From the NCBI GenBank assembly GCA_963422375.2, contig OY729428.2, positions 1,312,001 to 1,376,000 on the forward strand: DNA of 64,000 bases. The letters run 5' to 3'. The notes below the pieces were generated by a model that was not told the DNA's origin, did no database searches, and worked only from the letters and a program-made list of their open reading frames with translations. Numbering within the stretch: position 1 is the stretch's first letter; every line of letters starts with the position of its first letter. The position numbers were made by a program, and so were the translations under genes. This DNA is from Bryobacterales bacterium (lineage in GTDB: Bacteria > Acidobacteriota > Terriglobia > Bryobacterales > UBA6623). Below are positions 2,889 to 28,838 of this stretch, one piece after another.

Positions 2889-3311
2889 ATGAGAGCCCTG
2901 ATCGACCGGGTCCGCGTGATGCGGACCAGCAACGCGGCGGCCGCCGGCAAGACGGACGTCGCCGACGGCACGGCCGTGGACTCGAGCAACTACGAGGGCA
3001 CGCTGTTCGTGGCGGCCGTCGGGACCGTCGTCGACGGCGGCGCCACGGCCGTGCAGGTCGTGGCCAGCGACGAGTCGGACATGAGCGATGCGGAGGAGGT
3101 GGCCGCGGTGGCCGTGCCGGACGGCGGCAGCGACAAGCTGGTGACGATCGACGTGCGCTACGCGCAGCGGCGCTACCTGCGCTGCGTGGTCAAGCGCAAG
3201 ACCGCGAACGCGACGCTCGACGGCGTCGTGGCGCTGCAGTACGGGCCGCGCCGCGAGCCGGCGCCCCGGCACTCGACGGTGCTGGCCTCGGTCCGGGCGG
3301 CGGACCACTAG
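2889..3311 (+). CDS. Putative capsid decoration/cement protein
   Basis: Directly after capsid gene; beta-rich 140 aa with RRYLRCVV. Confidence 0.5.
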   Translation: MRALIDRVRVMRTSNAAAAGKTDVADGTAVDSSNYEGTLFVAAVGTVVDGGATAVQVVASDESDMSDAEEVAAVAVPDGGSDKLVTIDVRYAQRRYLRCVVKRKTANATLDGVVALQYGPRREPAPRHSTVLASVRAADH

Positions 3312-3868
3312 TGCGGACGCTGGAAGCGCTGGACGATCCCGGCGGCCCGCCGCTGGGCCTCGACGCGGTCAAGGCCCACCTGCGGATCGAGGGGGAGGGC
3401 GAGGACGAGGCGGTCCGGCTGATCGCCGCGGCCGCCGCGGCCCGGGCCGAGTCCTTCGCCCGGCTGGGCCTGTCGGCGCGGCGGATGCGGCTGACGCTGG
3501 ACGGCTTCCCGCCGGGAGGGCGGCCCGCGCAACTGCCGCGGCCGCCCGTGCCGGAGGTGGAGTCGGTCCTGTACCTGGGCCCCGACGGGGCCCAGCGCGA
3601 GCTGCCGGCGGACGGGTACCGCCTGGACGCGGCGCGCGGCCGGATCGCCCCGGCCGGCGGCGCCTGGCCGGCCGCGGCCCCCGCCCCGGGGTCGGTGGCG
3701 GTGACCTACCGGGGGGGCTACGCGCGGGCCGCGGACGTGCCCGCGCCCGTGCTGCAGGCGGTCCTGCTGATCGCGGGGAGCCTGTACGAGCATCCCGACG
3801 GGGAGGGGCCCGGGCTGCCGGCCGCGGCGCGGTCGCTGCTGGCCCCCTACCGCCGGATTGCCGCGTGA
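3311..3868 (+). CDS. Head-tail connector (gp6-like)
   Basis: LDAVKAHLRI...VPAPVLQAVLLIAGSLYEH. Confidence 0.85.
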   Translation: MRTLEALDDPGGPPLGLDAVKAHLRIEGEGEDEAVRLIAAAAAARAESFARLGLSARRMRLTLDGFPPGGRPAQLPRPPVPEVESVLYLGPDGAQRELPADGYRLDAARGRIAPAGGAWPAAAPAPGSVAVTYRGGYARAADVPAPVLQAVLLIAGSLYEHPDGEGPGLPAAARSLLAPYRRIAA

Positions 3869-3878
3869 AGGAGGAACC

Positions 3879-4208
3879 GTGAGAGACGCGCTGATTTTCC
3901 TCGCGCTCGCCGCGACGGCCCTGGCGGGCATGGGCGCGGTGGACGCGCTGGCCGGGCCGCGGCCCGGCGAGCTGGAGCGGGCCCTGGCGGCGTGGCTGGG
4001 CAAGACGTTCACCTGCGCCGGGGCCACGCTGTTCTTTCTCGGGATGAAGAGGGCGCTCTTCCCCGAGTTCGACATCTTGAGGGTGATCCACGGCGAGCCG
4101 CCGTTCAGCCCGCACGGGGAGGACGTGCCCCGGGCGGCCTACATCGTGGGCTGGTGCCTGCTGTACGGGGCGACGCTGCTGGCCTTCGGCTGGGGCGGGG
4201 CGTACTGA
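3879..4208 (+). CDS. Putative holin (about 3 TM segments)
   Basis: RBS AAGGAGG before GTG; hydrophobic segments; directly upstream of endolysin. Confidence 0.55.
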   Translation: MRDALIFLALAATALAGMGAVDALAGPRPGELERALAAWLGKTFTCAGATLFFLGMKRALFPEFDILRVIHGEPPFSPHGEDVPRAAYIVGWCLLYGATLLAFGWGGAY

Positions 4209-4747
4209 TGCTCCTGCTGGCCGCGGCCCTGCTGGCGGTGCCGTGCGAGCTGGCCCCGGTCTTCGAGGCCGAGCTCGGCCGCGCCGGGGCGGCGGCGATG
4301 CGGGCCGAGCTGGCCGCGCAGATCCACCGCGAGTCGTCGTGGCGCCCGCGGGCGCGCTCGCGCTACGCCAGCGGGCTGGCCCAGTTCACCCCGCCGACGT
4401 GGAGCGACATCGCGCCGCTGACGGTCCCGCCCTGCGACGGGGCGGACCCGACCGACCCGGGCTGCGCGATCCGGGCCCAGATCGTCTACATGCGGCGGCT
4501 GCTGGCGCGCTACCGCTTCGACCGCGACCGGTGGGAGTTCGCGTGGGCGGCCTACAACGGCGGCCCGGGCTGGATCGGGCGCGAGAAGTCGCGCTGCCGG
4601 CGCGAGCCGGGCTGCGACCCGCGGCGCTGGACGGGCCACGTCGAGCGGCACTGCATCCGGGCCGCCTGGGCCTGCGCGGAGAACCGCGCCTACCCGGCGA
4701 AAGTCGGGGGCCTCGTGCCCCTGTACCGGGAGGGCGGCTGCCGCTAG
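4208..4747 (+). CDS. Lytic transglycosylase (SLT) endolysin with hydrophobic N-terminus
   Basis: AQIHRESSW (catalytic E), GLAQFTP, AAYNGGPG, ENRAY; TGATG coupling. Confidence 0.9.
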   Translation: MLLLAAALLAVPCELAPVFEAELGRAGAAAMRAELAAQIHRESSWRPRARSRYASGLAQFTPPTWSDIAPLTVPPCDGADPTDPGCAIRAQIVYMRRLLARYRFDRDRWEFAWAAYNGGPGWIGREKSRCRREPGCDPRRWTGHVERHCIRAAWACAENRAYPAKVGGLVPLYREGGCR

Positions 4748-4984: not shown

Positions 4985-5308
4985 ATGATCGAAGCGTTGT
5001 GCACGGCCCTGGCGCTGGCGTTCCTGTCGCCGCTGGCGGCGTTCGGGGCGGCGGCCTTCGTCGAGGGCGGGCGGCGGCGGCGGGCTTACCGCCGGCTGGC
5101 GTCCGACCCCCTGGTGCGCGTCGGAGCGGCCATCGAGCGGCTGGAGATAGAGGGCCTGCCGCACACCGCCCTGCGGGACTGCCGGATCGTCGAGTTCGGG
5201 GTCGGGCGCATGGCCGTGCGGGACGCCCGGGGCGCGGTGATGACGTTCACCGGGCGGGAGTTCGAGCGCTTGCACCCCGTGTTCGCGCCGCCCGAGGAGC
5301 GGTCGTGA
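4985..5308 (+). CDS. Membrane-anchored hypothetical protein
   Basis: N-terminal TM then beta-rich domain; tightly coupled to neighbours. Confidence 0.5.
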   Translation: MIEALCTALALAFLSPLAAFGAAAFVEGGRRRRAYRRLASDPLVRVGAAIERLEIEGLPHTALRDCRIVEFGVGRMAVRDARGAVMTFTGREFERLHPVFAPPEERS

Positions 5309-8722: not shown

Positions 8723-9030
8723 CCCGGGCCGTGGGGCTGCCGCTGCGCGAGGCCCTGGCCATGCCGTACTCGGAATACCGGGCCTGGGAACGCCACTTCC
8801 GGCGCTGGCCGCCCCTGGAGGCGGTCGCGCCGCGCCTGCTGGCGACCCTGGCCGCCCTGGTGAGTAACGCGGGATTCAAGGTGGACCGCCCGTTGCGTCC
8901 GGACGACTACGCGCCCTGGCTGACGAGCGAGAGCGCGCGGCGCCGCGCGCGGCAGGCCGCGGCGGCCGCGCGAGTCGGGGAAGCGTACCGCAGGAGCGGC
9001 GGGAACGGCAAGAGCGGCAGGCATGGCTGA
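8710..9030 (+). CDS. Tail assembly chaperone gpT extension reached by -1 frameshift
   Basis: -1 frame reads PFFVARAVGLPLREALAMPYSEYRAWERHF, typical gpT-like sequence. Confidence 0.75.
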   Translation, partial: PFFVARAVGLPLREALAMPYSEYRAWERHFRRWPPLEAVAPRLLATLAALVSNAGFKVDRPLRPDDYAPWLTSESARRRARQAAAAARVGEAYRRSGGNGKSGRHG

Positions 9031-12000
9031 AGCGATCCGCGCGGGCGGCGTCCTGCTGAGCATCCGCGCCGACGTCGCCCAGTTCTCGGGGTCGATGCGC
9101 CGGATGGGCAACGACATCCGGCGCCAGGAACGGGCCATGCGCGGCCTGCGCCGGACGGTGCAGCGCGCGGCGCGGCAGATGCAGTCGTTCCGCCGGAAGG
9201 TGATCTCGGTGCAGGCCGCGGTCGGCGTGGTTTCCGGAGCCGCCGGGCTGGGACTGATGATCCGGCGCTCGGCCGAGCTCGGCTCGACGCTGGTCGAGAC
9301 GAGCCAGCGCCTGGGGCTGACGGTCCGCGACCTGCAGGCCCTGCAGCGCGCCTTCGAGAGCGAGGGCGTGTCCGTGCAGGCCGTCAACACCGGCCTGCAG
9401 CGCTTCACGCGGCGGCTGGCGGACGCGGCGAACGGGCAGGGCCAGCTGCAGGAGGCCTTCCGGGCCCTGGAAGCGCCGCTGCGGGACGCGAACGGCCGGC
9501 TGCGCGATTCCCACGACGTGCTGCTCGACGTCGCGGAGGGCTTCAAGAACACGGGCGACCAGCAGGAGCGCGTGCGCCTGGCCCAGAAGCTGTTCGACAG
9601 CGAGGGCGTGGCCTTCGTCAACGTCCTGCAGCGGGGCCGGGAGGGGCTGCTCGAGCTGGAGAAGGGCTTCGAGCGGCTGGGCTTCGTCGAATCCCGGGAG
9701 GCGGCGGCGCGGCTCAAGGCTCTCGGACAGAGCTTCGCGGACCTCGACCACGCCGTGCGCGCGGGCGCGGCCCGGGCCGTGGCCGCGGCGGCCGTCGACC
9801 TGGCCTCCCTCAACGAGCGGGCCGGGGAGCTCGCGGCGACCCTCGCCGGGCGCGCGATCGCGGCCGTGGCGCACCTCGCGCGGAACCTGGACGCCGCCAA
9901 GCAAGCCGCGATCGCCTTCGGCCTGGCTCTCGGCGCCATGAAGATCGGCGCGTGGGTCGGCACCGTCCGGGCGGCGATCGCGGCCTCCGCGGGCCTCGCC
10001 GCCGCGTTGCGCGGCCTGAATATCGCCGTCGCCGCGTTCGGGGGGCCGGCGGGCTGGATCGTCGCGGCCGTCGGAGCGCTGGGCTACTACTTCCTGTCCG
10101 CCAAGGACTCCCGGAACGAGACCGACGAGCTCGTCGCGTCGATCCGCGAGGCGGAGATCGTGCTCGCGGGAATGGACGCCTCGGCGCGGAAGCTCGGGCT
10201 CGAGAGAGAGCTCGAGAAGGCCGCCGAGCACGCCGCCGAGCTCGCCCGCGAGATCGCGGCTTCGCTGCAGAAGCACGACGAGCTCATGGAGGCCATGAAA
10301 GCGGGAGCGCGAGGGACCGTGTATTTCGTGGGCCGGGAGGGCAGGATACGCGCAGGCCTCGAGGCGGATGCCGCGCGGACGGCAGAGGAAATCGAGCGGC
10401 TGCAAGCCGAGCTCGCCGCAGCGAACGGGGAGACCCGGAACGCTCGCGGCGGCGGCGGCGATGAGATCCTGCCGCGCGTCCCGCACGTCCCGGAGGACTA
10501 CTTCGCGCGGTACGCGGACGCCGCCGAGCGGAGAATCCGGCTTGCCAGGCAGGAGCTCGCACTGGTCGGCAAGACCGGGGAGGATCTCCTGCAGCTGCAG
10601 GCGCGGCACGCGGTCGTCAACCGGCTGCTCGACGAGCGGGCGCAGCTGGAGCGGAGGCGCGAGAGGGCGGCGGCCGAGTTCCGGGCGGCGGCCGAGGCGG
10701 GCGACCAGCGGGCGCTCGCGGCGGAGCGGGAGAAGATCGCGGAACTCGATCGCGAGATCGCGGCGATCGCCAAGGCCGAGGAGGGCAAGGAATCGCTCGT
10801 GGCCCTGGAGCGCGAGGCCCTGGAGACCGCGGAGCAGGCTCGCGACGCGGCCAAGGAGCACGCCGCGGCCAACGAGCGCGCGACGGAGGCTGCCGAGGCC
10901 CAGGTCCGGGCGCTCGAGACGGCCAGCGCGGCCAGGGCCGATGGCCGGAGGGAGCATCTCAAGCTGGTCGCGGCCGAGGACCGCGAACTGCGGAGTCGCG
11001 AGGAGAGCGCCCGCGCGACGATCGCGAGGAGCGCGGCCGGCGGGGATGCGGAATCCGAGGGAGAGGCCGCGGCCCGCAGATCGTTCGAGGACCAACTGCG
11101 CGGGCTGGAGGCCCGAAGGGTAGGTCTGGACATCGACCTCGGCGGCGCCGCCGACGGCGACGCGGTCGCTGAGATCGACGCGCAATTGGCGGGCGTCGAG
11201 GTCCGGATCGAGGAGCTCCGCAATCGAGACCTCGGGCCGCTCGCGGCCCGCCTGGACAGAGTGGCCGGCATGGAGCGCCTGGCCGGGACGATCGAAGAGA
11301 ACTCGGTCGCGGCCGCGGCGCAGGATGCCGAGGCCCGGATCGCCGCGCTGAGCGAGGCCAACGCCGCGGCGTTCGAGGCGGCGATCCGGCGGGGCGCGGA
11401 TCCGGAGCGGCTCGCGCTGGCCCTCGGAGAGTACGCGTCCGAGGGGTCGCAGCGCTTCCGGGCGGCCTCCGACGAGGCCTTCGAGGGCCTCAAGCGAGAC
11501 CTCGCCGCCAAGCGGCACGCGCTGCTCGCGGCGGCCGAGGAGTTCCGGCGCCGGGCCCGGGCGGCCGCAGGCGACGAGCGGCGGAACCAGCTCTTCGAGA
11601 ACGCCGCTGCCGCCGCGGCCGCCGCGGAGAATCTCCGGACGCAGCTCGGCGACGCGCCCGGGCTGCGGGCCGCGAATCGGGATCGGATCGAGCGGGAGGC
11701 GCGCGAGAGGCTGGTCGACGAGCGCTTCCGCCGCCGCCAGGCGATCCAGAGGGATCTGCTGGCGCTGTCCGAGTCGATGTCCCGGACGCTCTCCGACGGG
11801 CTGGCCCGGGCCGTCGAGCAGGGCGGCAAGCTGAAGGACCACTTCAAGGAGATCGGCCGGACGCTGCTGAACATGGCGCTCCGGAAGCTGGTCATCGACA
11901 AGGCGACGAGCGCGCTCTCCGGGGCCCTGTCGGGGCTGTTCGGCGGCGGGGGCGGCGGGGCGGCGCCCGGCAAGGCCGGCGGCGGCCCCGTCGAGGCCGG

Positions 12001-12280
12001 GCGGATCTACCGCGTCGGCGAGAGCGGCGTGGAGCTGTTCCGGCCGGCGGCGGCCGGTTCCATCGTGCCGAACCACCGCCTGCGGCCGCTCGCCGGCGGG
12101 AGCGAGGCGCCCGCGGTCACGCTCAACATCCGCGTCGAGTCCACGGACGGCCCCGGCGTGGAGGCGGCGATCCGGCGCCTGCGGCCGCTGCTGGCGTCCG
12201 ACGCGGCCGAGCTCGCGAAGGGCGCGGTGAGAACGGACCTGGCGCGGGCGTCGGGGCTCAGAGGGACGCTGCGTGCCTGA
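9023..12280 (+). CDS. Tape measure protein (1085 aa)
   Basis: Ala-rich helical; LLSIRADVAQF start; C-terminal AGGGPVEAGRIYRVGESGVELF. Confidence 0.92.
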   Translation: MAEAIRAGGVLLSIRADVAQFSGSMRRMGNDIRRQERAMRGLRRTVQRAARQMQSFRRKVISVQAAVGVVSGAAGLGLMIRRSAELGSTLVETSQRLGLTVRDLQALQRAFESEGVSVQAVNTGLQRFTRRLADAANGQGQLQEAFRALEAPLRDANGRLRDSHDVLLDVAEGFKNTGDQQERVRLAQKLFDSEGVAFVNVLQRGREGLLELEKGFERLGFVESREAAARLKALGQSFADLDHAVRAGAARAVAAAAVDLASLNERAGELAATLAGRAIAAVAHLARNLDAAKQAAIAFGLALGAMKIGAWVGTVRAAIAASAGLAAALRGLNIAVAAFGGPAGWIVAAVGALGYYFLSAKDSRNETDELVASIREAEIVLAGMDASARKLGLERELEKAAEHAAELAREIAASLQKHDELMEAMKAGARGTVYFVGREGRIRAGLEADAARTAEEIERLQAELAAANGETRNARGGGGDEILPRVPHVPEDYFARYADAAERRIRLARQELALVGKTGEDLLQLQARHAVVNRLLDERAQLERRRERAAAEFRAAAEAGDQRALAAEREKIAELDREIAAIAKAEEGKESLVALEREALETAEQARDAAKEHAAANERATEAAEAQVRALETASAARADGRREHLKLVAAEDRELRSREESARATIARSAAGGDAESEGEAAARRSFEDQLRGLEARRVGLDIDLGGAADGDAVAEIDAQLAGVEVRIEELRNRDLGPLAARLDRVAGMERLAGTIEENSVAAAAQDAEARIAALSEANAAAFEAAIRRGADPERLALALGEYASEGSQRFRAASDEAFEGLKRDLAAKRHALLAAAEEFRRRARAAAGDERRNQLFENAAAAAAAAENLRTQLGDAPGLRAANRDRIEREARERLVDERFRRRQAIQRDLLALSESMSRTLSDGLARAVEQGGKLKDHFKEIGRTLLNMALRKLVIDKATSALSGALSGLFGGGGGGAAPGKAGGGPVEAGRIYRVGESGVELFRPAAAGSIVPNHRLRPLAGGSEAPAVTLNIRVESTDGPGVEAAIRRLRPLLASDAAELAKGAVRTDLARASGLRGTLRA

Positions 12281-12991: not shown

Positions 12992-13579
12992 GTGGCGCTG
13001 ATCCCGTTCCCGGCGGGCGTGCCGGTGACGCGCTCGGACCTGGCCCTGGGGCATCCCGGCCAGATCGTGCTGCGCTCGCCCTACGGCGGCGGGACGCAGG
13101 TGCTCGGGCGCGGTCCCGGCATCTGGTCCGGACGGCTCGAGATCGGCCCGGCCGACCGCGCCTCGGTCGCGGACCGGCGCGCGGTCGAGGCCTTCCTGGC
13201 GCGGCTGCGGGGGGCCGGGAACACGTTCGAGGCGCCGTTGCACCGCCCCAGCGGCGGCTCGCTCGTCGCCGGGGCCGAGCTGTCGGTGCAGGCGGCGGGG
13301 ATCTACGCGGGCGGCCTGCGCGTGTGGGCGGACGGCTCCTCCGAGGGCCTCGTCGCGGGCGACTACGTGCGCATCGGCGAGCGCCTGTACCAGCTGGTCT
13401 CGGACCTGCGGGGCGGCCGCTGCGAGCTGGAGCCGCCGGCGACGCCCTCCGCGGGGCGGGGCATCGCCTGGGAGGGCGTCACCTGCCTGGCGCGCCGGAC
13501 CGGGCCCGAGCGCGAGCCGTGGAGGCTGGATCCCGACTTCGCCGGGCCGTGGGCGATCGAATGGGAGGAGGCGGCGTGA
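12992..13579 (+). CDS. Putative distal tail protein
   Basis: SPYGGGTQV..W, EAFLARLRG motif; position after tape measure. Confidence 0.6.
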   Translation: MALIPFPAGVPVTRSDLALGHPGQIVLRSPYGGGTQVLGRGPGIWSGRLEIGPADRASVADRRAVEAFLARLRGAGNTFEAPLHRPSGGSLVAGAELSVQAAGIYAGGLRVWADGSSEGLVAGDYVRIGERLYQLVSDLRGGRCELEPPATPSAGRGIAWEGVTCLARRTGPEREPWRLDPDFAGPWAIEWEEAA

Positions 13580-14169
13580 CGGCTGAAGCCCCCTGGGTGC
13601 AGAACCTCGTCGAGCTGGCCTACCCCGGGGGCGCGACGCGGCTGTGGACGGGCCGCGGCGAGCTGAGCTTCGCCCCGGACGACGGCGACGCCGGCGGCGA
13701 CGCCCGCAAGGTAGCCTGGACCGGCGGGGCGGCCCTCGGCATCGGCGAGCACGAGCGCGTGTCGGGCCGCCCCGAGCGCCGCATGAGCCTCGCGCTCTCG
13801 GGCGTGCCGCGCGAGCGGCGGGCCCGGTTCATGCAGGATCCCGGCCCGATCGAGGTGACCGTGCGCTGGGTGTACAGCCCCGACCTCGGCGAGAGCTGGC
13901 ACGAGGTGCCCGGGGCGCGGTACCGGGGCCGCCTGTCGGGCGGGTCGCTGCAGGACGGGACGCTCGCGGTCGAGCTGGAGACCCTGCTCGGCGACGTGGA
14001 GCGGGGCCGGCCGCGGCGCTGGTCGCACGAGGACCAGCAGCGGCGCTCCCCGGCCCGCGAGGTCGCGGCCGGGGACGGGGGCGCGAAGCGGACCGTGCCG
14101 GCCGACCTGGGCCTCGAGCACATGCGGGCGCTGGCCCGCCAGGGAGTGGAGACGGCGTGGCCGCCCTAG
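13576..14169 (+). CDS. Tail tip/baseplate hub protein (DUF2163-like)
   Basis: LVEL..RLWTGRGEL...RRWSHEDQQRR...DLGLEH...W. Confidence 0.65.
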   Translation: MTAEAPWVQNLVELAYPGGATRLWTGRGELSFAPDDGDAGGDARKVAWTGGAALGIGEHERVSGRPERRMSLALSGVPRERRARFMQDPGPIEVTVRWVYSPDLGESWHEVPGARYRGRLSGGSLQDGTLAVELETLLGDVERGRPRRWSHEDQQRRSPAREVAAGDGGAKRTVPADLGLEHMRALARQGVETAWPP

Positions 14170-14624
14170 CCGGCCCAGCCGGGCGCGAGCGGGCGCGGCG
14201 GGTCCGCGACGCCCTCGAGTCCGAGGGCCTCGGGCCGTCCGCCTGGCGCGAGCGCGACTGCGTGACGCTGCTGCGAGCGGTCGTGCGGGCCCTGTCGGGC
14301 CGCGAGCCCTCGCTGGCCCTGCCGGCCTGGACCGACGGCCTCGGCGAGCGCGAGGCGATCCTGCGAGCTCCCCGCGAGCACGGCTCGCTGCGGGACGGCT
14401 GGGCCGCGGTGCTGGACGCCGAGCCGCTGCTGCGGCGCGTCCCGCGGGGATGCCTGCCGCGGCCGGGCATGATCGCCCTGGCGGCGGTCGTCCTCGGCCC
14501 CGGGGGCGAGCGCCTGGCGGGCGCCTCGCCGGGCGTGATCGGCCCGGGCTGCGAGTGCTGGGTCCGGACGCCGCGGGGCATCGAGCGGGCGCACCCGGTC
14601 ACGGACCTGTGGGAGGTCCGCTGA
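14157..14624 (+). CDS. NlpC/P60-like tail protein
   Basis: [10 protein letters not shown] matches W..DC motif; position before host-specificity gene. Confidence 0.5.
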
Positions 14625-14625
14625 G

Positions 14626-19740
<5,115 letters not shown>

Positions 19741-19747
19741 GAGCGAC

Positions 19748-21676
19748 ATGGATCCCGCCTACGTCATCAACGCCTTTCCCGAGCGGCGCGAGGCCGTCGC
19801 GTTCGAGCTCGAGCGCCACGGCGGCGCGGACCCGGCCGCGATCCGCTGGATCGGCGCCCCGCGCGGCAGCGCGGCCCGCGGCGAGCCGCTGTTCGCCTGG
19901 CCCCGCTGGCGCGAGGAGCGGACCGGGGCCCTGCTGACGTGGGGCGAGCTGGCCTGCTTCGCGGGGCACCTCGAGGCCTGGCGGCGCATCGCCGCCGGCG
20001 ACGCGGGCGGGGGCTTCGTCTTCGAGGACGACGCCGCGCTGACGGCCCGCCTGGACGGGCTGCCGGCGGAGGCCTTCGCCGGCGCCGGCCTGGTGTACCT
20101 GCACTCGCAGTGGCGCTGCGAGCCCGAGCCGGGCCCGGGCCCCTGGTGCGCGGCGCCGTACACGTGGACGCTGACGGCCTACTGGCTCTCGCGGGAGGCC
20201 GCGGCCGGGCTGGCCGCGGCGGTCGATCCGGACCGGATCGTGCCGGCGGACGAGTACGTGCCGTGGCACTGCGGGACGTGGGACCCGGCCTTCAACCCGC
20301 GCGTGCGCGGCGAGCTGGGGCAGCAGCCGCCGGCGGGGATCGCGGCCCGCTGCCTGCGGGAGCGGCCGGCCGGGCCGTCCGGGCGCTGGGAATCGTCCAC
20401 CGCGGCCGGCCTCTCCCCGCCGGCCTTCGACTTCGAGACGGTCGTCTTCGCCACCGAGCCGGCCCGGGCCGGGGAGGCGCTGGGGGCCCTGCGCGACCTC
20501 GGCTACCGCCCGCGGGTCCTCGGCGCGGGCGAGCCGGGCTGGGACGCCTCGGCGGAGGGCGGCATGCCCAAGCTGCGCTGGCTGCGGGAGGACCTCGCGG
20601 GATCCGACCCGCGGCGGCGCGTCGTGCTGGCGCTGGACGGCTACGACACGCTGCCGCTGGTCCCGGCCGCGGAGTTCTGGGCGCGCTTCGCCGGCATGGA
20701 CTGCCCGGCGGCGATCTCCGGGGAGCGCGGGCTGTGGCCCCCGCGCAACGAGTGGGTGCCCGACCCGGAGCGCGCCTGGCAGGCGTACTGGGAGGACTGG
20801 CCGTGGCGCCGCGAGGGCGTCGCCGAGCGCTACCGGCACGCGTGCAGCGGCGCCTTCGCCGGGCACGCCGAGACGCTGGACTGGGTGCTGCAGGGCCTGC
20901 CGCCCGACGGCGACGACCAGGCCTGGATGCAGGCCGCCGTGCTGGCCAACCCGCGCGCCTGGCGGGTCGACTCGGAGGCCTGGCTGTTCCAGTCGCTGGG
21001 CGGCGAGGAGGGCGCCGTCGAGCGGCGCGACGGCGCGGCCTTCAACGCGGCCACCGGCTGCTACCCGGCGATCCTGCACGCCAACGGCCCGCAGGCCTCG
21101 CTGGACCCGTTCCTGCCGGGCCCGCCGCCGGCGGCGCTCGAGCTGGACCCGGACGCCGGGCGCTGGCTGGAGCTGGCGCCGGGCGTCCTGGGCATGCCGT
21201 TCCTGTCGCGCGCGGCCTGCGCCGGGCTGCTCGAGAGAGCGGAGGCCAGCGACGCCTGGCAGCCGCTGGAGGGGGACGCCGTGCCGGGCGACGAGCTGCG
21301 CCTGCGCGCGCTGGACCCGGCGCTGCGGGCGTGGCTGGACGAGACCCTGCGCGCGGTCGTCGGTCCGGCGGTCGCGGCGCGCTGGCATCCCGCCGCCTGG
21401 AAGGACCCCTGCGACGCCTTCCTGATCCGCTACCGCCCGGACCGCCAGCCGTCGCTGCGGCTGCACGAGGACATCAGCTACCTGTCCTGCTCGATCCGCC
21501 TGCGGCGGGCCTGCGCGGGCGGGCAGCTGCGCTTCCCGCGCCAGAATTTCGACGACGGCGCGGCGGACGACGGCTGGCTGCTGCTGTGGCCGTCGCGGAT
21601 CACGCACCCGCACCGCGTGCTGCCGGTGCGGCGGGGGACGCGCGCCAGCCTGGTGGTGTGGACCCCGGAGAGCTGA
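19748..21676 (+). CDS. Putative trifunctional collagen-modifying enzyme: GT25 + PLOD-type glycosyltransferase + lysyl hydroxylase-like 2OG-Fe(II) dioxygenase
   Basis: [58 protein letters not shown]...THPH...GTR. Confidence 0.88.
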
Positions 21677-21691
21677 GCGGGGAGCCGAGCG

Positions 21692-22534
21692 GTGCCCGCG
21701 TTTATCCGCTGGCGCGTCGAGGCCGCCGGGGGGACCGACTTCGGCGCGCCCCAGCCCGTGCTGGCGGGCCTGCCGGGCGGCCCCGGACAGCCCGGGCCCA
21801 AGGGCCTGCCCGGCCGGGCCGGACCGCCCGGAGCCCCCGGGCCGACCGGAGTCCCCGGGCGGGCGGGGCCGGCCGGGCTCCCCGGCCTCGAGGGGTTCCC
21901 GGGGCTGCCCGGCGCCGAGGGCGCCGGGGGCTCCCGGGGGGCCCGGGGGCTCCGGGGCCTGGACGGCGCGCCGGGCGCGAAGGGGGTTCCCGGCCGCCGG
22001 GGGGCGCCCGGAGCGCAGGGCGCGCGGGGGGATCCGGGGGGCCCGGGGGCGCAGGGGCGGCAGGGCTCTCCCGGCGCCCGGGGCCCGGCCGGCGCGCGCG
22101 CCGCGCGAGGCGAGGCCGGCAGGGGCGGCGCGGGCGGAGACCCCGGCGCGGGCGGAGACCCCGGCGCCCGGGGCGCCGGCGGCACCCCCGGAGACCGCGG
22201 CAGTCCCGGCTCCCGGGGAGACAGGGGCTCCCTGGGCGACAGGGGCCCCCCGGGCGCCGGAGGAGACGCCGGCGCCCCCGGAGACCGCGGCAGTCCCGGC
22301 TCCGGGGGAGACGCCGGCGCCGCCGGAGGCATCGGTATCACCGGCTCGGACGGGGCCGGCGGGGCCGGCGGCGAGCCCGGGGGCGCCGGAGACCAGCCCA
22401 GCGGGCCGGACGGATGGTCCGGGCCGGCCGGACCGCCGGGAGACCCGGGCGGGAACGTCTACCTGCAGGCTTACGACGACGGGTACGGCGAGGGCTACTT
22501 CGACGGCGAGGACGACTGCTACTCCGAGCAGTGA
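21692..22534 (+). CDS. Collagen-like protein A
   Basis: Long Gly-X-Y tract; short N- and C-terminal caps. Confidence 0.9.
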
Positions 22535-22542
22535 CGCGAGCG

Positions 22543-23409
22543 ATGCCGACGACGACGTGGACGACGGAGGCCGCCGCCGTCGAGCGGGACGACCTGCGCG
22601 CGCGGGACTTCGGCCCGGCGCGAGCGGACTCCGCGCTGCACCCGCCCGGGCCGCCCGGGCCGCGCGGGGAGACGGGCCCGCCGGGGCCCCGGGGCCCGGA
22701 CGGGCCTGCCGGGCGCCCGGGGCCGCCCGGGCCGCGCGGGGAGACGGGCCCGCCCGGCGCGTTCGCCCGCGCCGGCGCCCCGGGCGCTCCGGGCCCGGCC
22801 GGCCCCAAGGGCTCCGCGGGCCTGCCCGGACAGCCCGGAACCCCCGGCGCTCCGGGCGCCAAGGGCTGGCCCGGACGGCAGGGCCTGCCGGGAGCCGAGG
22901 GAGCCGGGGGCGCCAAGGGCCGCAAGGGCTACAGGGGCCCCGGGGGCCCCGGGGGCTCCAAGGGCTCCAGGGGCGCCAAGGGCGCCAAGGGCTACAGGGG
23001 CCCCGGGGGCCCCAAGGGCGTCGAGGGCCGGAAGGGCTCCGACGGCGCGCGGGGCGCCAAGGGATACAGGGGCGCCAAGGGGACCAAGGGGACCAAGGGC
23101 TCCAAGGGGACCAAGGGCCTCAGGTCCTTCCCCTTCCGCGGGCCCCGGGGCCCCAAGGGCTACAGGGGCAGCCCCGGCCCGGCCGGCGGGACCGGCCGCG
23201 GGGGCTACGCGGGCGCGCGGGGCCCGCGCGGGGCCCGCGGGCCGGCCGGCGAGCCGGGCCCGATCGGCCAGGTCTACCAGGAGCCGCTGCGCGGCGACCC
23301 CGGGCCGAAGGGGCGCAAGGGCGCCAAGGGCAGGCGCGGCCGGACGCTGGGCTACTCCTCCGGGTACGCGGCCGGGCATGCTGACGGATACGCGGATGCC
23401 GGCTGCTAG
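22543..23409 (+). CDS. Collagen-like protein B, Lys-rich (alternative GTG start 22531)
   Basis: 3' part of listed ORF 19939..23409; GPPGPRGET and GAK/GSK/GTK triplets. Confidence 0.9.
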
Positions 23410-24265
23410 CGGGGCGCTGTGGACGATCGTCGCGCGCGCCCCGGACGCCCGCTCCGTGCGGGCCGGGGGCTTCGGCGCGCCGCGGCTGTACGCCGGCCCC
23501 GTCGGCCCCGTCGGCGAGCGCGGACGCCCGGGACCGCCCGGCGGCGAGGGGCACCCCGGACCGCCCGGACCGCCCGGACCGCGGGGCCCGCGCGGGCCCC
23601 GCGGCCGGCAGCGGCGCGGCGAGCGCGGACGCCCCGGGGCCGTCGGCCAGCGGGGCGCGCCGGGCGACCCGGGACCGGCGGGCCGGGGCGGCGACCCCGC
23701 CCCCGACGGCGCGCAGGGCGACAGGGGCGCCCGGGGCCTGCCCGGGAGGCAGGGCGACCCCGGCCCCGGCGGCGCGCAGGGCGACAGGGGCGCCCGGGGC
23801 CTGCCCGGGAGGCAGGGCGACCCCGGCCTCGGCGGCGCGCAGGGCGACAGGGGCGCCAAGGGCGTCAAGGGCTCCAAGGGGCGCAAGGGCTACAGGGGCG
23901 TCAAGGGCGCCAAGGGCGCCAAGGGCGCCAAGGGCGCCAAGGGCGCCAAGGGCGCCAAGGGCTCCGACGGCGCGCGGGGCGCCAAGGGCCCCAAGGGGTA
24001 CAAGGGCGCCAAGGGGTACAAGGGCGCCAAGGGCGCCAAGGGCGCCAGGGGCCGGAAGGGCCCCAAGGGGTACAAGGGCGCCAAGGGGTACAAGGGGTAT
24101 AAGGGATACAAGGGGAGCAAGGGCGAGGCCGGCTACTATTCCGGCAGCCCGTTCAACCCCGAGGACTACCGGGGGGCGCCCGGGCCGCCCGGCTCCAAGG
24201 GCGCCAAGGGCGCTTCCGGAGGAGGACGCAACTATGGCCGGACGACGCTACCGCATGCTCGCTGA
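23396..24265 (+). CDS. Collagen-like protein C, Lys/Tyr-rich (alternative start 23378)
   Basis: Gly-X-Y tract with GAK/GYK runs. Confidence 0.9.
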
Positions 24266-24497
24266 CGGCGACCCGGACAAGCTCTCGGCGGAGAGCTTCC
24301 GCGCTTTCGGCGAGCTGGCCGCGCGGCGCGGGAGGGCCCCCGTCACCCTCTGGGTGCTCGAGTCCGACGAGGAGCTCTCCGCCGAGGGCGCCCGCCCGCT
24401 GCGCCCGCTGCCGGACGGCACCTGGGAGGCTCCCGGCGGCCGCCGCTGGCGCCGCTTGACCGGGACCCCCGGCGGCGCGGAGGGCCCCCGCGCGTGA
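24234..24497 (+). CDS. Small hypothetical protein in collagen module
   Basis: RBS GGAGG; overlaps both neighbours. Confidence 0.6.
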   Translation: MAGRRYRMLADGDPDKLSAESFRAFGELAARRGRAPVTLWVLESDEELSAEGARPLRPLPDGTWEAPGGRRWRRLTGTPGGAEGPRA

Positions 24498-25048
24498 ACG
24501 GCCCCTGGAGCCTGGTGCCCGGCGCCGTCGACGACTGCGCGGGCCTGCTGCGCGCGCTGCTCGACAGCACGGAGCTGCGCCCCGGCACCGTCAACGGCGA
24601 CGGCTCCGTGCGCCCCGACATCCGCCGCTCCGCCGTCGGCTGGCCCGACCCCGCCCGCCACGCCGCCGAGCTCGCCCGCGTGCGCCGGGCCGTTCTCGCG
24701 GCCAACCGCGAGCTGTGGGGCTTCGATCTCGACGGCGGCGAGGAGTGGCAGCTCACGCACTACACCCATCTCGACGCGGGCGTCTACGAGCGGCACATGG
24801 ACTGCTCGCTGGAGGGCGGGCGGCCGCGCTGCCGCAAGGTCTCCGTCTGCGTCAACCTGTCCGACCCGCGCGACTACGAGGGCGGCTCGCTGCGGCTGGG
24901 GGCCGTGGGCCAGCCCGACCGCGCGGCGCTGCGCCAGCGCGGCGCCGCGCTGGTCTTCCCCAGCTTCGTCGAGCATCGCGTCACGCCCTTGCTGGCCGGG
25001 GAGCGCTACTCCCTCGTCGCCTGGTTCTCCGGGCCGGCCTGGCGCTAG
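24494..25048 (+). CDS. 2OG-Fe(II) dioxygenase (PKHD/prolyl-hydroxylase-like)
   Basis: HMD, RKVSVCVNLSDPRDYEGG, VFPSFVEHRVTP, GERYSLVAW. Confidence 0.9.
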   Translation: MNGPWSLVPGAVDDCAGLLRALLDSTELRPGTVNGDGSVRPDIRRSAVGWPDPARHAAELARVRRAVLAANRELWGFDLDGGEEWQLTHYTHLDAGVYERHMDCSLEGGRPRCRKVSVCVNLSDPRDYEGGSLRLGAVGQPDRAALRQRGAALVFPSFVEHRVTPLLAGERYSLVAWFSGPAWR

Positions 25049-25202
25049 CCCGCGCCGCCGCGCCTACTGGTATAATGGAGAGATGCTGGCTCCGGCGTCA
25101 GCATCGTGATCTGGGCGCCGGGGCTGGCAGCTGCAGCAGCACCCGCTGCCACCCTCCCCTGGGTAGAGGGGCCGTGCACGGCCTAACTCCCCGAGGATAG
25201 GG

Positions 25203-25595
25203 GTGGCAGCGGACCCTAGGCACGGTAGCGCGATCCGTGCGAGGGCCCTGAAGCCCCGCCGCACGGTACGCTGGGAGACGTCGAGCGGAACCCTTTGCGA
25301 GAGCGTTGCCGGGCGGGCCCGCGAGGGCCCGCCCTATTCGTATCGGGAGCGGGAGCGGGGCATGGGAACGCGGACGCTGCACTTCCTGGCAGCCTTCGAT
25401 CAGGTCTGCGACAGGGAGCTGCTTCCCATGAGGCAGGCCGAGGAATGTGGCGCCCGGAGAACAATCGACGAGGCGGCGGCAGTGGCGCTCGGTATCGCTC
25501 CCGATGCAATCGCGGACTGGAGAAGGCGTTTGGCGTTGGAGCCGACGATCACCAATGTGCGCGTCAGGGAACCCGGGAGCGAAGAGGCATCCTGA
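25203..25595 (+). pseudogene. Possible C-terminal gene remnant (restriction-modification enzyme-like)
   Basis: Only the last ~75 codons look protein-like; sits just upstream of the ATPase. Confidence 0.3.
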
Positions 25596-25641
25596 GCATG
25601 GCCCTGAACGCGAAGCACACGGATTTCCAAGGGGCTTGAGC

Positions 25642-27738
25642 ATGTCTGTCGAATACTCGATGAGAATTTCCCGGCTTACCGTCGACAAGTTGGGGGTCAA
25701 GCTCTACGACAAGGTGTCCGCCGTCATCGCCGAACTCATCGCGAACGCCTACGATGCCGATGCCACACATGTGACGGTTCGAGCGCCGATGGGGCAGTTT
25801 CTGGCGACTCGAGCCGGAGGCACCGTGGCGGACAAGGGCTTCAGCATCGAAGTCGACGACGACGGCATCGGCATGACGCCTCAGCAGGTACAGGACTTCT
25901 TTCTCGTCGTCGGTTCCGAGCGGCGGAACGACACCAGCCGAGGCGACCGTTCGCCCCGCTACAGACGTAAGGTCATGGGCCGCAAGGGCGTCGGAAAGCT
26001 GGCACCCTTCGGTATCTGCAAGACCATCGAGGTGATCAGTGCCGGCGGAGATTTCATCGACGGCGGGGGTGCGACCCCGGGCGCCACGGGCTACCTCACG
26101 TCCCACATCGTCCTCTACTACGATGGCATCACGGCGCTCGATGATGAGCCCGACGAACGCTACAAGCCGGTCGTGGGCGACCGCGATGAGTCTTACTCCC
26201 CGAAGTCGGGGACTCGAATCATCCTGAAGGACTTCAGCCACCGGAGGGTCCCCGAGCTCAATGTCCTCGGCCGCCAGCTCGCCCAACGCTTTGGTATCCC
26301 GTCGACGGACTGGAATGTCCAGCTTCTGGACAACACGGAATCCACTCCGTCACCGGTGACGGTCGGCACCTTCGACATTCAGACGATGCCGAACACGAAG
26401 CTCACGTTTGGGCAGAATGGAACTGTACTCAACCCCGACGGTGCTCCTGCGATGGACCAGTCGGCCGGATTCGAACATGAGGGCATATTTCGCCCCATCA
26501 CAGGCTGGATGGCGTACTCGAAGGCTCCCTACAAGGACGAGCTCATGGCTGGGGTGAGAATCTACTGCCGCGGCAAGATCGCCGCCCAGACATCCATCTT
26601 CAACCAGCGGGCCGGCTTTACCGGCGAGCACAACATCCGCTCCTATCTCGTCGGCGAGCTCCACGCCGACTGGCTCGACGAAGAAGAAGACCTCATCCAA
26701 ACCGATCGACGGGACATCCTCTGGTCGGACGAACTCGCTGCCGCCTTCCAAGCTTGGGGCCAGAGAATCGTCAAGAAGATCGGCACCCTGTCGCGGGAGC
26801 CCATGCGGAGAGCGACTTTGGATCTGTTCCTCGAGACGGGCGATGTCGACGCTCGCATCCAGAACGCCTATCCGACCGAAGAGCAACAAGACATTCGCAA
26901 AAGCGCGAAAGAGGTCGCCGAATCCTTCGGTCGCACGATCAGCCGAGGGGATGTCGAAGATGCCAGCGTCGTGAACGAACTGGTCGATCTGAGCATCACC
27001 CTCGCGCCCCACATCACGCTCAACGCCAAGATGAAGGAAGCGGTCGCCAGCGCCGACACGCCGCTCTCTGTCCTAGCTTCGTTCCTGCGTACGGCGCGAT
27101 TGGCCGAACTGTCCTCGTTCGGCAGAATCGCGGAAGACCGCCTCAAGGTCATCGACCGCCTCGAAATTCTGAAGGACGCCGACGACACCGACGAGAACGA
27201 TCTTCAGCGGCTGATCACTGACGCTCCCTGGTTGATCAACCCTGAATGGGCGCCGGTGACCGAAAACCAAACCTTCGCGAGTTTGCGCCGGGAGTTCGAG
27301 AAGTACTACAACGACAAGACCGGCCAGTCCATTTCGTTGTCCGATTTCCAGAAGACGGGCAAACGGCCGGACTTCGTCTTGTCCAATCAGGAAGGCACGG
27401 TGCAGATCATCGAGATCAAGAAGCCGGGCCATAGACTGTCGAACCCGGAAATGGACAGGATCGTCACCTACTACGAGAACATGGAGGCGTTCCTTGACGA
27501 CCCTGGGCATACCGCGTTTCGCATGCACTTGGCCGACTTCCATGTCACCGTGGTCTGCGACAGGCTCGGTTTGAGCGGTTCTCCGCGCGCCGCCTTTGAT
27601 GGTTATCGTGACAAAGGCAGACTGACGCGCATGGACTGGACGGCGTTTCTCCTGAAATCGGAACAAGTGCACCAGGATTTTCTCAGCGAGGCCCAGCGTC
27701 AGCGTGCCGCCGGACCAGCGGTTCCCGACGGCCATTGA
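25642..27738 (+). CDS. GHKL/MORC-type ATPase with C-terminal PD-(D/E)XK nuclease-like domain
   Basis: ELIANAYDADA, DDGIGM, GRKGVGK, GTRI; RPDFVL...IIEIKKP; start reassigned to ATG 25642. Confidence 0.88.
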   Translation: MSVEYSMRISRLTVDKLGVKLYDKVSAVIAELIANAYDADATHVTVRAPMGQFLATRAGGTVADKGFSIEVDDDGIGMTPQQVQDFFLVVGSERRNDTSRGDRSPRYRRKVMGRKGVGKLAPFGICKTIEVISAGGDFIDGGGATPGATGYLTSHIVLYYDGITALDDEPDERYKPVVGDRDESYSPKSGTRIILKDFSHRRVPELNVLGRQLAQRFGIPSTDWNVQLLDNTESTPSPVTVGTFDIQTMPNTKLTFGQNGTVLNPDGAPAMDQSAGFEHEGIFRPITGWMAYSKAPYKDELMAGVRIYCRGKIAAQTSIFNQRAGFTGEHNIRSYLVGELHADWLDEEEDLIQTDRRDILWSDELAAAFQAWGQRIVKKIGTLSREPMRRATLDLFLETGDVDARIQNAYPTEEQQDIRKSAKEVAESFGRTISRGDVEDASVVNELVDLSITLAPHITLNAKMKEAVASADTPLSVLASFLRTARLAELSSFGRIAEDRLKVIDRLEILKDADDTDENDLQRLITDAPWLINPEWAPVTENQTFASLRREFEKYYNDKTGQSISLSDFQKTGKRPDFVLSNQEGTVQIIEIKKPGHRLSNPEMDRIVTYYENMEAFLDDPGHTAFRMHLADFHVTVVCDRLGLSGSPRAAFDGYRDKGRLTRMDWTAFLLKSEQVHQDFLSEAQRQRAAGPAVPDGH

Positions 27739-28838
27739 CGAACATGACTCCGACGGCGATCGACATCTTTGCCGGCGCTGGGGGCCTGACGGTTGGCCTC
27801 AAACGCGCGGGCTTCCGCGTTGTCGCTGCGGTGGAGATCGAGGCCCATTCATTCGCTACCTACAAGGCGAACCATCCTGAGGTGCGGTGCCTGAAGCAGG
27901 ACATCGCCACGGTCTCCGGCGACGCTCTTTTCGAGCTCGCGGGAACAGACCGAATTGATCTACTGGCAGGTTGCCCGCCGTGCCAAGGCTTCACCAGCCT
28001 GACTGCAAAGTACAAGGGTAGGGAAGATCCTCGTAACGCACTCGTTCTCGAGATGGCCCGCCTCGCCGAGGAAATGCGGCCGCGGGCGATCATGATGGAG
28101 AATGTCCCCGGATTGGCACGAAAGGGCGGATCGCTATACGGTCGAATGCAAGCGCGACTCCAGGCGCTCGATTACCGACTGACAGATAGGATACTGCAAG
28201 TCGCTGATTACGGTGTCCCGCAGTTTCGGCGACGATTTGTCCTACTCGGTGGTCAAGGCTTCGAGATCGCCCTCCCGGACGCGACTCATTCCGGTACGCC
28301 GACTGGTAACCTTACGCGTTGGCGCACGGTAGGTGACACGATCAAGAACATGCCTGAACCCCTCACCTTGGCGGAGGCCAAGGCAAGGGGAGAGGTCGAG
28401 CGGTCCGACTGGCATGTCGTTCGAAAACTGTCGCGCGAGAACATCGAACGCATTAAGGCGGCGAAGCCAGGTGAGACATGGGCGCACATTCCCGAGCATC
28501 TCCGGCCGGCCTGTCACCGTGACGGCTATGTCGGATTCACCAATGTATACGGGAGGATGGTTTGGGACCGACCGTCACCTACGATTACCGGCGGCTGCAC
28601 CACTCTAAGCAAGGGCCGCTTTGGTCATCCGAATGCCGACCGGACGATCTCCGTACGGGAGGCCGCACTTCTCCAGACCTTTCCCCGAGACTACCGCCTT
28701 GACACACCGTTCATGGATTATGTGTGTAACATGATAGGCAACGCATTGCCGTGCGACTTTGCGGAAGCCCTCTCGCGGCGATGTCTAGACGAGCTTGGCA
28801 AACAGGCGAAAAGCATGTCCCCGACATTCTCCAGCTAG
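27735..28838 (+). CDS. DNA cytosine-5 methyltransferase
   Basis: FAGAGG, GCPPCQGF, ENVPG, PQFRRR, REAALLQTFP, IGNALP. Confidence 0.95.
   Translation: MTNMTPTAIDIFAGAGGLTVGLKRAGFRVVAAVEIEAHSFATYKANHPEVRCLKQDIATVSGDALFELAGTDRIDLLAGCPPCQGFTSLTAKYKGREDPRNALVLEMARLAEEMRPRAIMMENVPGLARKGGSLYGRMQARLQALDYRLTDRILQVADYGVPQFRRRFVLLGGQGFEIALPDATHSGTPTGNLTRWRTVGDTIKNMPEPLTLAEAKARGEVERSDWHVVRKLSRENIERIKAAKPGETWAHIPEHLRPACHRDGYVGFTNVYGRMVWDRPSPTITGGCTTLSKGRFGHPNADRTISVREAALLQTFPRDYRLDTPFMDYVCNMIGNALPCDFAEALSRRCLDELGKQAKSMSPTFSS

Follow-up and report, generated by a model that had tools for sequence, protein, structure and literature searches.

Among described collagens, the closest counterparts to the locus considered here are C1q (with its A, B and C chains) and other short heterotrimeric collagens such as type IX. 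In these, short paralogous chains are encoded side by side; the collagen regions are near-equal in length and share a kink; Lys in the Y position of Gly-X-Y can be a site of hydroxylation and glycosylation; and inter-chain disulfides join some chains only. Each of these features has an observed or predicted counterpart in three adjacent collagen-like genes, designated A, B and C, in a prophage of a Bryobacterales bacterium (GCA_963422375.2, contig OY729428.2, positions 1,312,001-1,376,000 of the forward strand; this 64,000-nt stretch is termed the window, and coordinates are counted within it unless another locus is named). Taken together, comparative data suggest, with a probability of roughly 0.6, that A, B and C are the strands of one 1:1:1 heterotrimeric collagen-like tail fibre, hydroxylated and glycosylated, of a temperate siphovirus-like phage. 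Unlike C1q and type IX collagen, the trio lacks a globular gC1q or NC2-type selection domain, the candidates for chain selection being a ~30-amino-acid (aa) N-terminal motif and tails of 0-34 aa; it belongs to a phage and would assemble in the cytoplasm of a bacterium; homology is absent outside Gly-X-Y; and the heterotrimer is a proposal.

A second point of comparison is mimivirus, which likewise encodes collagen-like proteins together with lysyl hydroxylase/glycosyltransferase enzymes (L230, a lysyl hydroxylase/glucosyltransferase, and R699). Unlike mimivirus, the present case concerns a tailed phage of bacteria, the enzyme has an added GT25/COLGALT1-like domain, and three matched short chains lie directly beside it. 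Scl1/Scl2, Lcl, BclA and the collagen-like minor tail and tail fibre proteins of PHROG have Gly-X-Y and a tail-fibre place in common with the trio, the NCBIfam and PHROG matches arising via the repeats. PMC8968730 describes such proteins as homotrimeric and as having a globular domain, for trimerisation or as receptor domain, whereas here there are three distinct chains and no globular domain: the non-collagen ends measure 12-35 aa, with no trimerisation or anchoring domain of the Scl/Lcl/BclA type. All NCBIfam scores fall far under the cut-offs, those for SclB, SclA and Lcl being 52-99 bits against 325-500 (62-99 bits where the cut-off is 325).

The collagen module comprises the following open reading frames (ORFs), in which 2OG denotes 2-oxoglutarate and E the expect value:

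19748-21676, + strand, predicted fused collagen-lysine modifying enzyme, 642 aa (Pfam, PDB sequence search, Foldseek)
21692-22534, + strand, collagen chain A, 280 aa, 75 triplets (Pfam Collagen E 4.4e-23)
22543-23409, + strand, collagen chain B, 288 aa, 73 triplets (Pfam Collagen E 3.2e-29)
23396-24265, + strand, collagen chain C, 289 aa, 76 triplets (Pfam Collagen E 1.2e-31)
24234-24497, + strand, conserved small ORF, 87 aa (tblastn matches in related loci)
24494-25048, + strand, prolyl-4-hydroxylase-fold 2OG-Fe(II) oxygenase, 184 aa (Pfam, AlphaFold2, Foldseek)

A first-pass annotation of this DNA had read A, B and C as paralogous collagen chains of near-equal length, and the ORFs, Pfam, the triplet counts and recurrence in related loci bear this out; its further descriptions, of a common N-terminal motif, an Asp-rich second half in A beside Lys-rich second halves in B and C, and GYxxGYxxG repeats closing A and B, are upheld by the details that follow. 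Chain A begins at a GTG, which yields 'MPAFIRW' (compare 'MPAIRW' and 'MPEIRW' in orthologues) and has GGGGAG 7 nt upstream; B and C begin at ATG. A longer open frame contains chain B as its 3' part. For chain C, initiation further upstream, at the ATG at 23378, would lengthen the product to 295 aa; the ATG at 23396 is the better match to orthologues. The gap between A and B is 8 nt, and that between B and C is -14 nt, the start of C overlapping the end of B. All three chains exceed the Pfam PF01391 cut-off, with Gly-X-Y runs of 6-48 triplets. Pfam gave no signal in the chains beyond collagen, and neither Pfam nor NCBIfam identified a known chain-selection domain; the ends consist of the ~30-aa N-terminal motif, with conserved residues specific to each paralogue, and the short tails.

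The chains are organised alike. After 25-35 N-terminal aa comes a long helix; a hinge, 2-11 residues in length, separates it from exactly six further triplets, and a tail completes the chain. Their individual maps are:

Chain A: 37 triplets, AAR, 32 triplets, PS, 6 triplets, 25-aa tail
Chain B: 13 triplets, ARA, 39 triplets, SFPFR, 15 triplets, YQEPLR, 6 triplets, 20-aa tail
Chain C: 13 triplets, RR, 9 triplets, APD, 48 triplets, 11-residue hinge (including FNPEDYR), 6 triplets, 12-aa tail

In B and C alike the first break comes after 13 triplets, and the helix up to the last break contains 210 (A), 209 (B) and 215 (C) residues. The ~30-aa N-terminal motif common to all three has the form W...F..P, and its invariant residues in orthologues are W7 and F17 (11 A chains), F23 (8 B chains), and W9, I11 and F26 (9 C chains). 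Charge differs between chains (A: K2 R21 D20 E8; B: K19 R30 D9 E8; C: K28 R32 D11 E5). Every helix Lys lies in Y and none in X (2 in A, 19 in B and 28 in C), and 11 of the 14 helix Asp residues of A lie in X. The tails of A and B are Tyr/Gly-rich and carry GYxxGY; that of A is acidic with one Cys, that of B ends in Cys, and C is without Cys.

The family of the 642-aa enzyme is present in 3 of 61 related genomes, the window's own included, and matched 14 proteins in a collection of 5.8 billion. As a query, the single sequence found no relative in one-genome-per-species contigs; an alignment of the family did, at 17 loci, all in metagenome-assembled genomes of Acidobacteriota (Bryobacterales or Terriglobia), and recovered one contig in IMG/VR (locus L030). 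Three intact chains adjoin the enzyme in 11 of the 17 genome loci and in L030; at L010 the trio is intact except for a frameshift in B. Three loci (L015, L023 and L024) are decayed, and two (L014 and L029) are without the trio. Across loci of 61-71% GC the chains are conserved at the protein level, and each is recognisable as one of three orthologous types. Type A has an N-terminus ending '...F.AP.PV.IG' and the tail 'Y..GY..GY.DG..DC'; type B starts 'IRWSIDA...' and has the tail 'GY.DGY..GY.DAGC'; type C has an N-terminus ending '...F..PRLY.GP.GP.G', the hinge 'FNPEDYRG' and little or no tail.

The chief alternative to a heterotrimer is that A3, B3 and C3 form three separate homotrimeric fibres, each docked by its own version of the N-terminal motif, with equal length imposed by a common geometric requirement, for instance that the fibres bundle or reach equally far. 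This is judged unlikely, while deserving serious weight: characterised prokaryotic collagen-like proteins are all described as homotrimers in PMC8968730, and each chain does carry a complete N-terminal motif. Against it, chain C is almost tailless (0-4 aa) in several loci. It also offers no reason for the way in which helix length varies. The triplet counts at nine loci are:

Window: A 75, B 73, C 76
L013: A 85, B 86, C 85
L016: A 57, B 58, C 57
L017: A 88, B 90, C 83
L018: A 42, B 41, C 41
L020: A 42, B 41, C 41
L025: A 70, B 69, C 67
L030: A 50, B 46, C 45
L010: A 38, B 40, C 42

For L013 the A and B labels are interchanged, relative to gene order and N-terminal type, in the triplet, charge, hinge-position and Cys data; this exchanges 85 and 86 triplets and leaves the conclusions unaffected. 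Within a locus the counts differ by 1-7 triplets (mean 2.9), while between loci they span 38-90, and the pairwise correlation between chains is r = 0.989-0.995. In a permutation test 0 of 100,000 trials reached the observed length match; this figure overstates the significance, given that the loci are related to one another and that two belong to one length class. Agreement extends in part to the position of breaks: the helix up to the hinge matches within 6 residues at four loci (window 210/209/215; L013 237/240/237; L016 153/150/150; L025 189/188/187), and the last hinge is at a matching level in 7 of 9 loci, the other breaks, apart from the first of B and C, being confined to single chains. 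The collagen of the neighbouring J-like central tail fibre varies independently of the trio, with 38, 17 and 26 triplets beside the same trio in L020, L022 and L028.

Recent gene conversion does not explain this match. Stretches of 36 nt or longer with a DNA similarity of 78% or more between paralogues make up 0-16% of the gene in the window, L013, L017, L030, L010 and L025, and these six loci alone span 38-90 triplets with within-locus differences of 1-7. Outside Gly, paralogue identity is 0.20-0.51. Each chain has expanded through internal repeats that are likewise its own: window C contains three 21-aa units and GAKG runs, and L017 B contains six 22-aa units.

The distribution of cysteine provides a second argument. 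Whole chains A and B contain exactly one Cys each, always in the C-terminal tail, and chain C contains none, in 9 of 9 loci. This parity favours ABC because a single A-B disulfide would use both residues, and A3 or B3 would each be left with an odd Cys; separate homotrimers leave the 1/1/0 pattern unexplained.

Charge provides a third argument, in the window. Designed ABC collagen heterotrimers, in work by Gauba and Hartgerink in 2007 and by Fallas et al. in 2009, are reportedly kept in register by Lys-Asp axial pairs; similarly, Asp in X of one chain is here opposite Lys in Y of the two others. With the N-termini in alignment, the acidic-X block of A (triplets 40-75) is level with the Lys-Y block of C (40-70) and the basic-Y block of B (30-60), and possible axial +/- pairs near zero offset number ~9-10 for C-to-A, 2-3 for C-C, ~1 for B-B and 3 for A-A. 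All 27 possible trimers were scored at each locus, with geometry and weights that simplify the general rules. On this scale the window gives ABC 17 (z = 2.5 against triplet shuffles), AAA 8, BBB -8.5 and CCC -10. The negative values for B3 and C3 count against separate homotrimers, as does window C, where 1 of the 42 basic Y residues can be partnered with an acidic X residue of the same chain. Counts of intrachain basic(Y)-Gly-acidic(X) motifs over 27 chains (86 observed, 94.6 expected) give no signal either way.

Two other trimers, AAC and CAA, tie with ABC at 17 in the window. This would suit mixed trimers of another stoichiometry (A-B pairs with a variable third strand, or an A2C type) or a higher-order network, a proposal that is improbable, and distinctly more so than separate homotrimers. 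Consistent with it, locus L026 (9921-11023) holds two chains, one A-like and a frameshifted C, of ~42 triplets each. A long stretch common to these two chains suggests that recombination removed one chain. Opposed to such mixtures are the retention of all three types in 11 of 17 genome loci, L030 and L010, and the tight coupling of the genes, as expected for equimolar output.

The two-chain locus is one of several observations that weigh against a single ABC fibre. The z value of ABC ranges from -0.9 to 2.5 across the nine loci: it is 2.5 in the window, 2.5 in L013 and 1.8 in L020, and lies between -0.9 and 1.2 in L016, L017, L018, L025, L030 and L010. Among most relatives the individual chains are close to neutral. 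Lys-Asp complementarity was dropped as a family-wide argument since ABC is not favoured in most loci, and Lys-Asp pairing is not the selection rule of the family because the pattern is not conserved in relatives; the register argument of the first-pass annotation holds for the window and fails as a general rule. Family-wide charge scores that do not single out ABC are compatible with separate homotrimers, which would also accommodate naturally the interruptions that fail to match between chains. Apart from the last hinge most are unmatched (in the window they fall at triplet 37 of A, 52 of B and 22 of C), and L017 B has six periodic single-residue insertions missing from A and C. Furthermore, in L027 (10842-12524) and L030 (4079-5629) an additional N-terminal domain, ~320-350 aa long and with repeated 'Y.LDPDG'-like units, is fused to the first chain. 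A large domain on one chain only is a further point for separate fibres; type IX collagen also has a large N-terminal domain on one chain alone. For the extra domain of L027 the Atlas gave weak leads to beta-propeller families (score 0.84, below the guide of 0.9), and Pfam gave none. Partial gene conversion is evident in L016 (A-B), L018 and L020 (A-B), where 34-51% of the gene is covered. Finally, the prophage is present in three copies, ~99% identical, one on each contig (C1, C2 and C3) of the three-contig genome, those on C1 and C3 running over contig ends; in the other two copies chain C is 2 triplets shorter, the lengths of A and B being unchanged. The helix-length match is therefore approximate only.

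A further line of evidence concerns the number three. A viral-contig search anchored on the oxygenase, covering the best 80 of at least 590 relatives, and a metagenome search anchored on the enzyme alignment, yielding 41 distant marine loci with 24-52% identity in the best segment, were made. Among the 41 metagenome loci there were no further members of the window's trio family, and small collagen ORFs were present in L053 only. In all, three unrelated viral or metagenome contigs have tandem small ORFs consisting of collagen alone, in each case exactly three, of near-equal size, and beside a prolyl 4-hydroxylase (P4H)-like gene:

L053, 3130-3870: trio of 73, 78 and 79 aa, Lys-rich, with a P4H-like gene and a fused lysyl hydroxylase/glycosyltransferase enzyme nearby
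L129, 5539-6827: trio of 140, 142 and 137 aa, with segments of 7|6|6|5|4|9, 7|6|6|6|3|9 and 6|7|6|5|3|8
L137, 5331-6448: trio of 120, 118 and 116 aa

The L053 trio is flanked by a long-tail-fibre-like gene and a tail-sheath-stabiliser gene. In L129 five interruptions occur at matching places in the three chains. The chains of L129 and L137 are Pro-rich, have 0-1 Lys each, end in (GPP)n and have N-termini unlike the window's motif; both trios follow a small tail-protein-like ORF, and the P4H-like gene is the only modifying enzyme within 7 kb. Tandem 'collagen' ORFs in six of the oxygenase-anchored viral loci (L096, L103, L108, L114, L135 and L136) were rejected as trios, being Gly-rich non-collagen proteins or large fibres. 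Separate homotrimers leave the recurrence of exactly three mini-collagens on three other contigs unexplained.

Isolated phages present a different arrangement. In the phage collection, 11 records contain a full-length relative of the fused enzyme, at ~25% identity; they comprise myoviruses of Synechococcus, the Roseobacter phage CRP-6 and a single marine virus. In the two records examined, CRP-6 (L031, 4029-7641) and Synechococcus phage S-CAM9 (L032, 1-7683), the enzyme gene, annotated as hypothetical or 2OG-Fe(II) oxygenase, is directly beside a G-x-K-rich collagen tail-fibre gene, of 99 and 59 triplets, respectively; this is a single large fibre gene, with no trio.

The first-pass annotation had left the choice between an ABC helix and three separate fibres, and the former now appears partly supported: co-varying lengths, little conversion in most loci, the 1/1/0 Cys pattern and the threes elsewhere all point toward ABC. 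An ABC heterotrimer is the most economical proposal because it would account for three distinct but coupled chains, for equal lengths maintained through repeated independent expansions, for the Cys pattern and for the recurring three.

The predicted collagen-modifying enzymes that flank the trio are a large part of the story and were missing from the first-pass annotation. The 642-aa enzyme has, in order, a GT25/COLGALT1-like domain, an LH3-type glycosyltransferase domain and a lysyl-hydroxylase 2OG-Fe(II) domain. In Pfam it matches GT_PLOD (45.6 bits; cut-off 27) and, over profile positions 52-101 only, Glyco_transf_25 (29.4 bits; cut-off 24). A PDB sequence search retrieved LH3 (E 1e-21), COLGALT1 (E 6e-5), and mimivirus L230 and R699, which are sequence and fold matches of the enzyme. 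Residues 50-172 resemble COLGALT1, residues 249-450 the LH3 glycosyltransferase and residues 478-637 the LH3 lysyl hydroxylase. Across 14 family members H573, D575, H620, H622, R632 and D297 are invariant, and D300 is conserved in at least 90%. H573, D575, H620/H622 and R632 align with the iron/2OG site of LH3 (HxD...H plus Arg), and the DxxD motif is retained, 'LDGYD' in the enzyme aligning with 'VDSYD' in LH3. In the AlphaFold2 model the first domain has a predicted local distance difference test (pLDDT) score of ~85-95, and the C-terminal third, containing the lysyl-hydroxylase part, is of low confidence. Foldseek ranks COLGALT1 first (E 1e-11; root-mean-square deviation 3.5 over 233 columns), together with LH3 and mimivirus R699. 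Human LH3 (PLOD3) and COLGALT1 thus provide both the conserved sites and the best fold matches; unlike them, the phage enzyme would place three predicted activities on one 642-aa chain in the order GT25, glycosyltransferase, lysyl hydroxylase, at an identity of 13-24% in the Foldseek alignments.

The 184-aa oxygenase matches Pfam 2OG-FeII_Oxy_3 (47.3 bits), and H101, D103, H161 and R171 are invariant in 11 sequences. Its AlphaFold2 model (pLDDT 88.6) has a double-stranded beta-helix fold, for which the best Foldseek match is the P. putida P4H 4iw3 (template modelling score 0.74), followed by the collagen P4H of PBCV-1, an algal P4H and PHD2. It also matches PiuC/YbiX-type hydroxylases, and homologues occur in 14 loci besides the window. 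The operon therefore combines chains rich in X-Pro-Gly and X-Lys-Gly with homologues of every animal enzyme for those sites, their activities being predicted from this homology.

The prophage occupies the first ~38 kb of the window (1-38160), on the + strand, with a GC content of 75-84%. The collagen trio is assigned to the tail module of this high-GC, siphovirus-like prophage; the tape measure, Dit-like and J-like genes directly precede the collagen module. The upstream features are:

93-1067, + strand, portal
1042-1602, + strand, prohead protease
1646-2860, + strand, major capsid protein
3311-3868, + strand, head-tail adaptor
3992-4747, + strand, SLT-domain protein
4990-5062, predicted tRNA-Arg (CCT) (ARAGORN), inside the prophage structural gene block
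9023-12280, + strand, tape measure
12992-13579, + strand, Dit-like protein
14626-19740, + strand, J-like central tail fibre, 1704 aa, itself containing collagen blocks (Pfam Collagen E 4.4e-34; PHROG families for central tail fibre J and for tail fibre)

It might be asked whether the three ORFs are virion parts at all; they could instead encode a moron, matrix or decoy protein, or be repeats without coding function in a GC-rich region, given that GC-rich DNA yields long ORFs in all frames. That alternative is very improbable. The proportion of G+C at third codon positions in the stated frames is 0.90 (A), 0.95 (B) and 0.93 (C), with neighbouring genes alike; the protein-level conservation across loci of differing GC described above is a further argument; the chains always lie between the J-like fibre gene and modifying enzymes; and Pfam detects no signal besides collagen. 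Within 14000-26000 of the window no promoter-like or terminator-like sites were found.

By tblastn the 87-aa ORF was matched in 12 locus records other than the window, among which several represent the same DNA twice. Downstream of its collagen, the J-like fibre carries a tail motif starting 'LFVYYT' that is common to its relatives, and residues 48-74 of the 87-aa ORF resemble this post-collagen tail (hhalign probability 94.5%, E 7.5e-8; BLASTP E 0.003); the motif common to the ORF and J residues ~1352-1370 is 'L.P...L.DG.W....G..W'. Possibly the ORF is a stand-alone copy of an element that caps collagen or serves in docking. Its N-terminal half was considered as a collagen-less copy of the chain N-terminal motif, and this found no support (hhalign probability 1.7%).

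Short mosaic blocks are found among the collagen genes of this phage. The J-like fibre and chain B have in common a stretch of 14 residues followed by (D/E)GA, and 10-residue blocks are common to A and B and to B and C.

Beyond 25.1 kb the GC content drops, and the genes here include a pair resembling a restriction-modification system, a CI-like repressor and a RecE-like gene. The pair (25447-28838, GC 0.60-0.66) comes directly after the collagen module; its first member is a 763-aa HATPase_c_3 protein (PADLOC REase_II, E 2e-34) and its second a C5 cytosine methyltransferase, and it represents restriction-modification-like prophage cargo.

If A, B and C assemble as an ABC heterotrimer, the process would involve: co-expression of the trio with the two enzymes from one late operon; modification of the unfolded chains; chain selection; zipping of the helix; and disulfide formation. 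In the second step, homology to P4H, LH3 and COLGALT1 suggests that the P4H-fold oxygenase would hydroxylate Pro in Y, and that the fused enzyme would hydroxylate Lys in Y and then add galactose and glucose. The paralogue-specific ~30-aa N-terminal W...F..P segments would next select and register one chain of each kind. The collagen helix rises by 0.29 nm per residue, and zipping would produce a rod of ~230 residues, roughly 65 nm long, with the common hinge six triplets before its end. One disulfide could then tie the Tyr/Gly-rich tails of A and B after release. In the distal half of the fibre in this phage, Asp (X) of A would pair with Lys (Y) of B and C, and this region would be densely glycosylated. 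The fibre's most likely role is that of a side fibre or of an adhesin to the surface of the host.

Viral use of P4H has been called cryptic (PMC9301287), and bacteria are said to lack prolyl hydroxylase (PMC11923368). The literature covered, outside which most subscription journals lie, contained no account of a lysyl hydroxylase from phages or of heterotrimeric collagen in phages or bacteria, so that absence is unproven. A broader proposal, tentative and at a little under even odds, is that tailed phages possess natural register-specific ABC collagens, in which a ~30-residue terminal motif would suffice for selection; that the operon would represent a complete modification kit (prolyl and lysyl hydroxylase, galactosyl- and glucosyltransferase) working in the bacterial cytoplasm; and that the three-gene design would recur in several unrelated lineages. 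If the ABC assignment is true, this would be the first natural heterotrimeric collagen in bacteria or their viruses, as far as the literature searched shows. It would provide a compact model for chain selection and register that is compatible with the bacterial cytoplasm, consisting of three short chains, a minimal motif and their own hydroxylases and glycosyltransferases, and a possible production route for modified heterotrimeric collagens. It would also assign a concrete function to the widespread '2OG-Fe(II) oxygenase' and P4H genes of phages.

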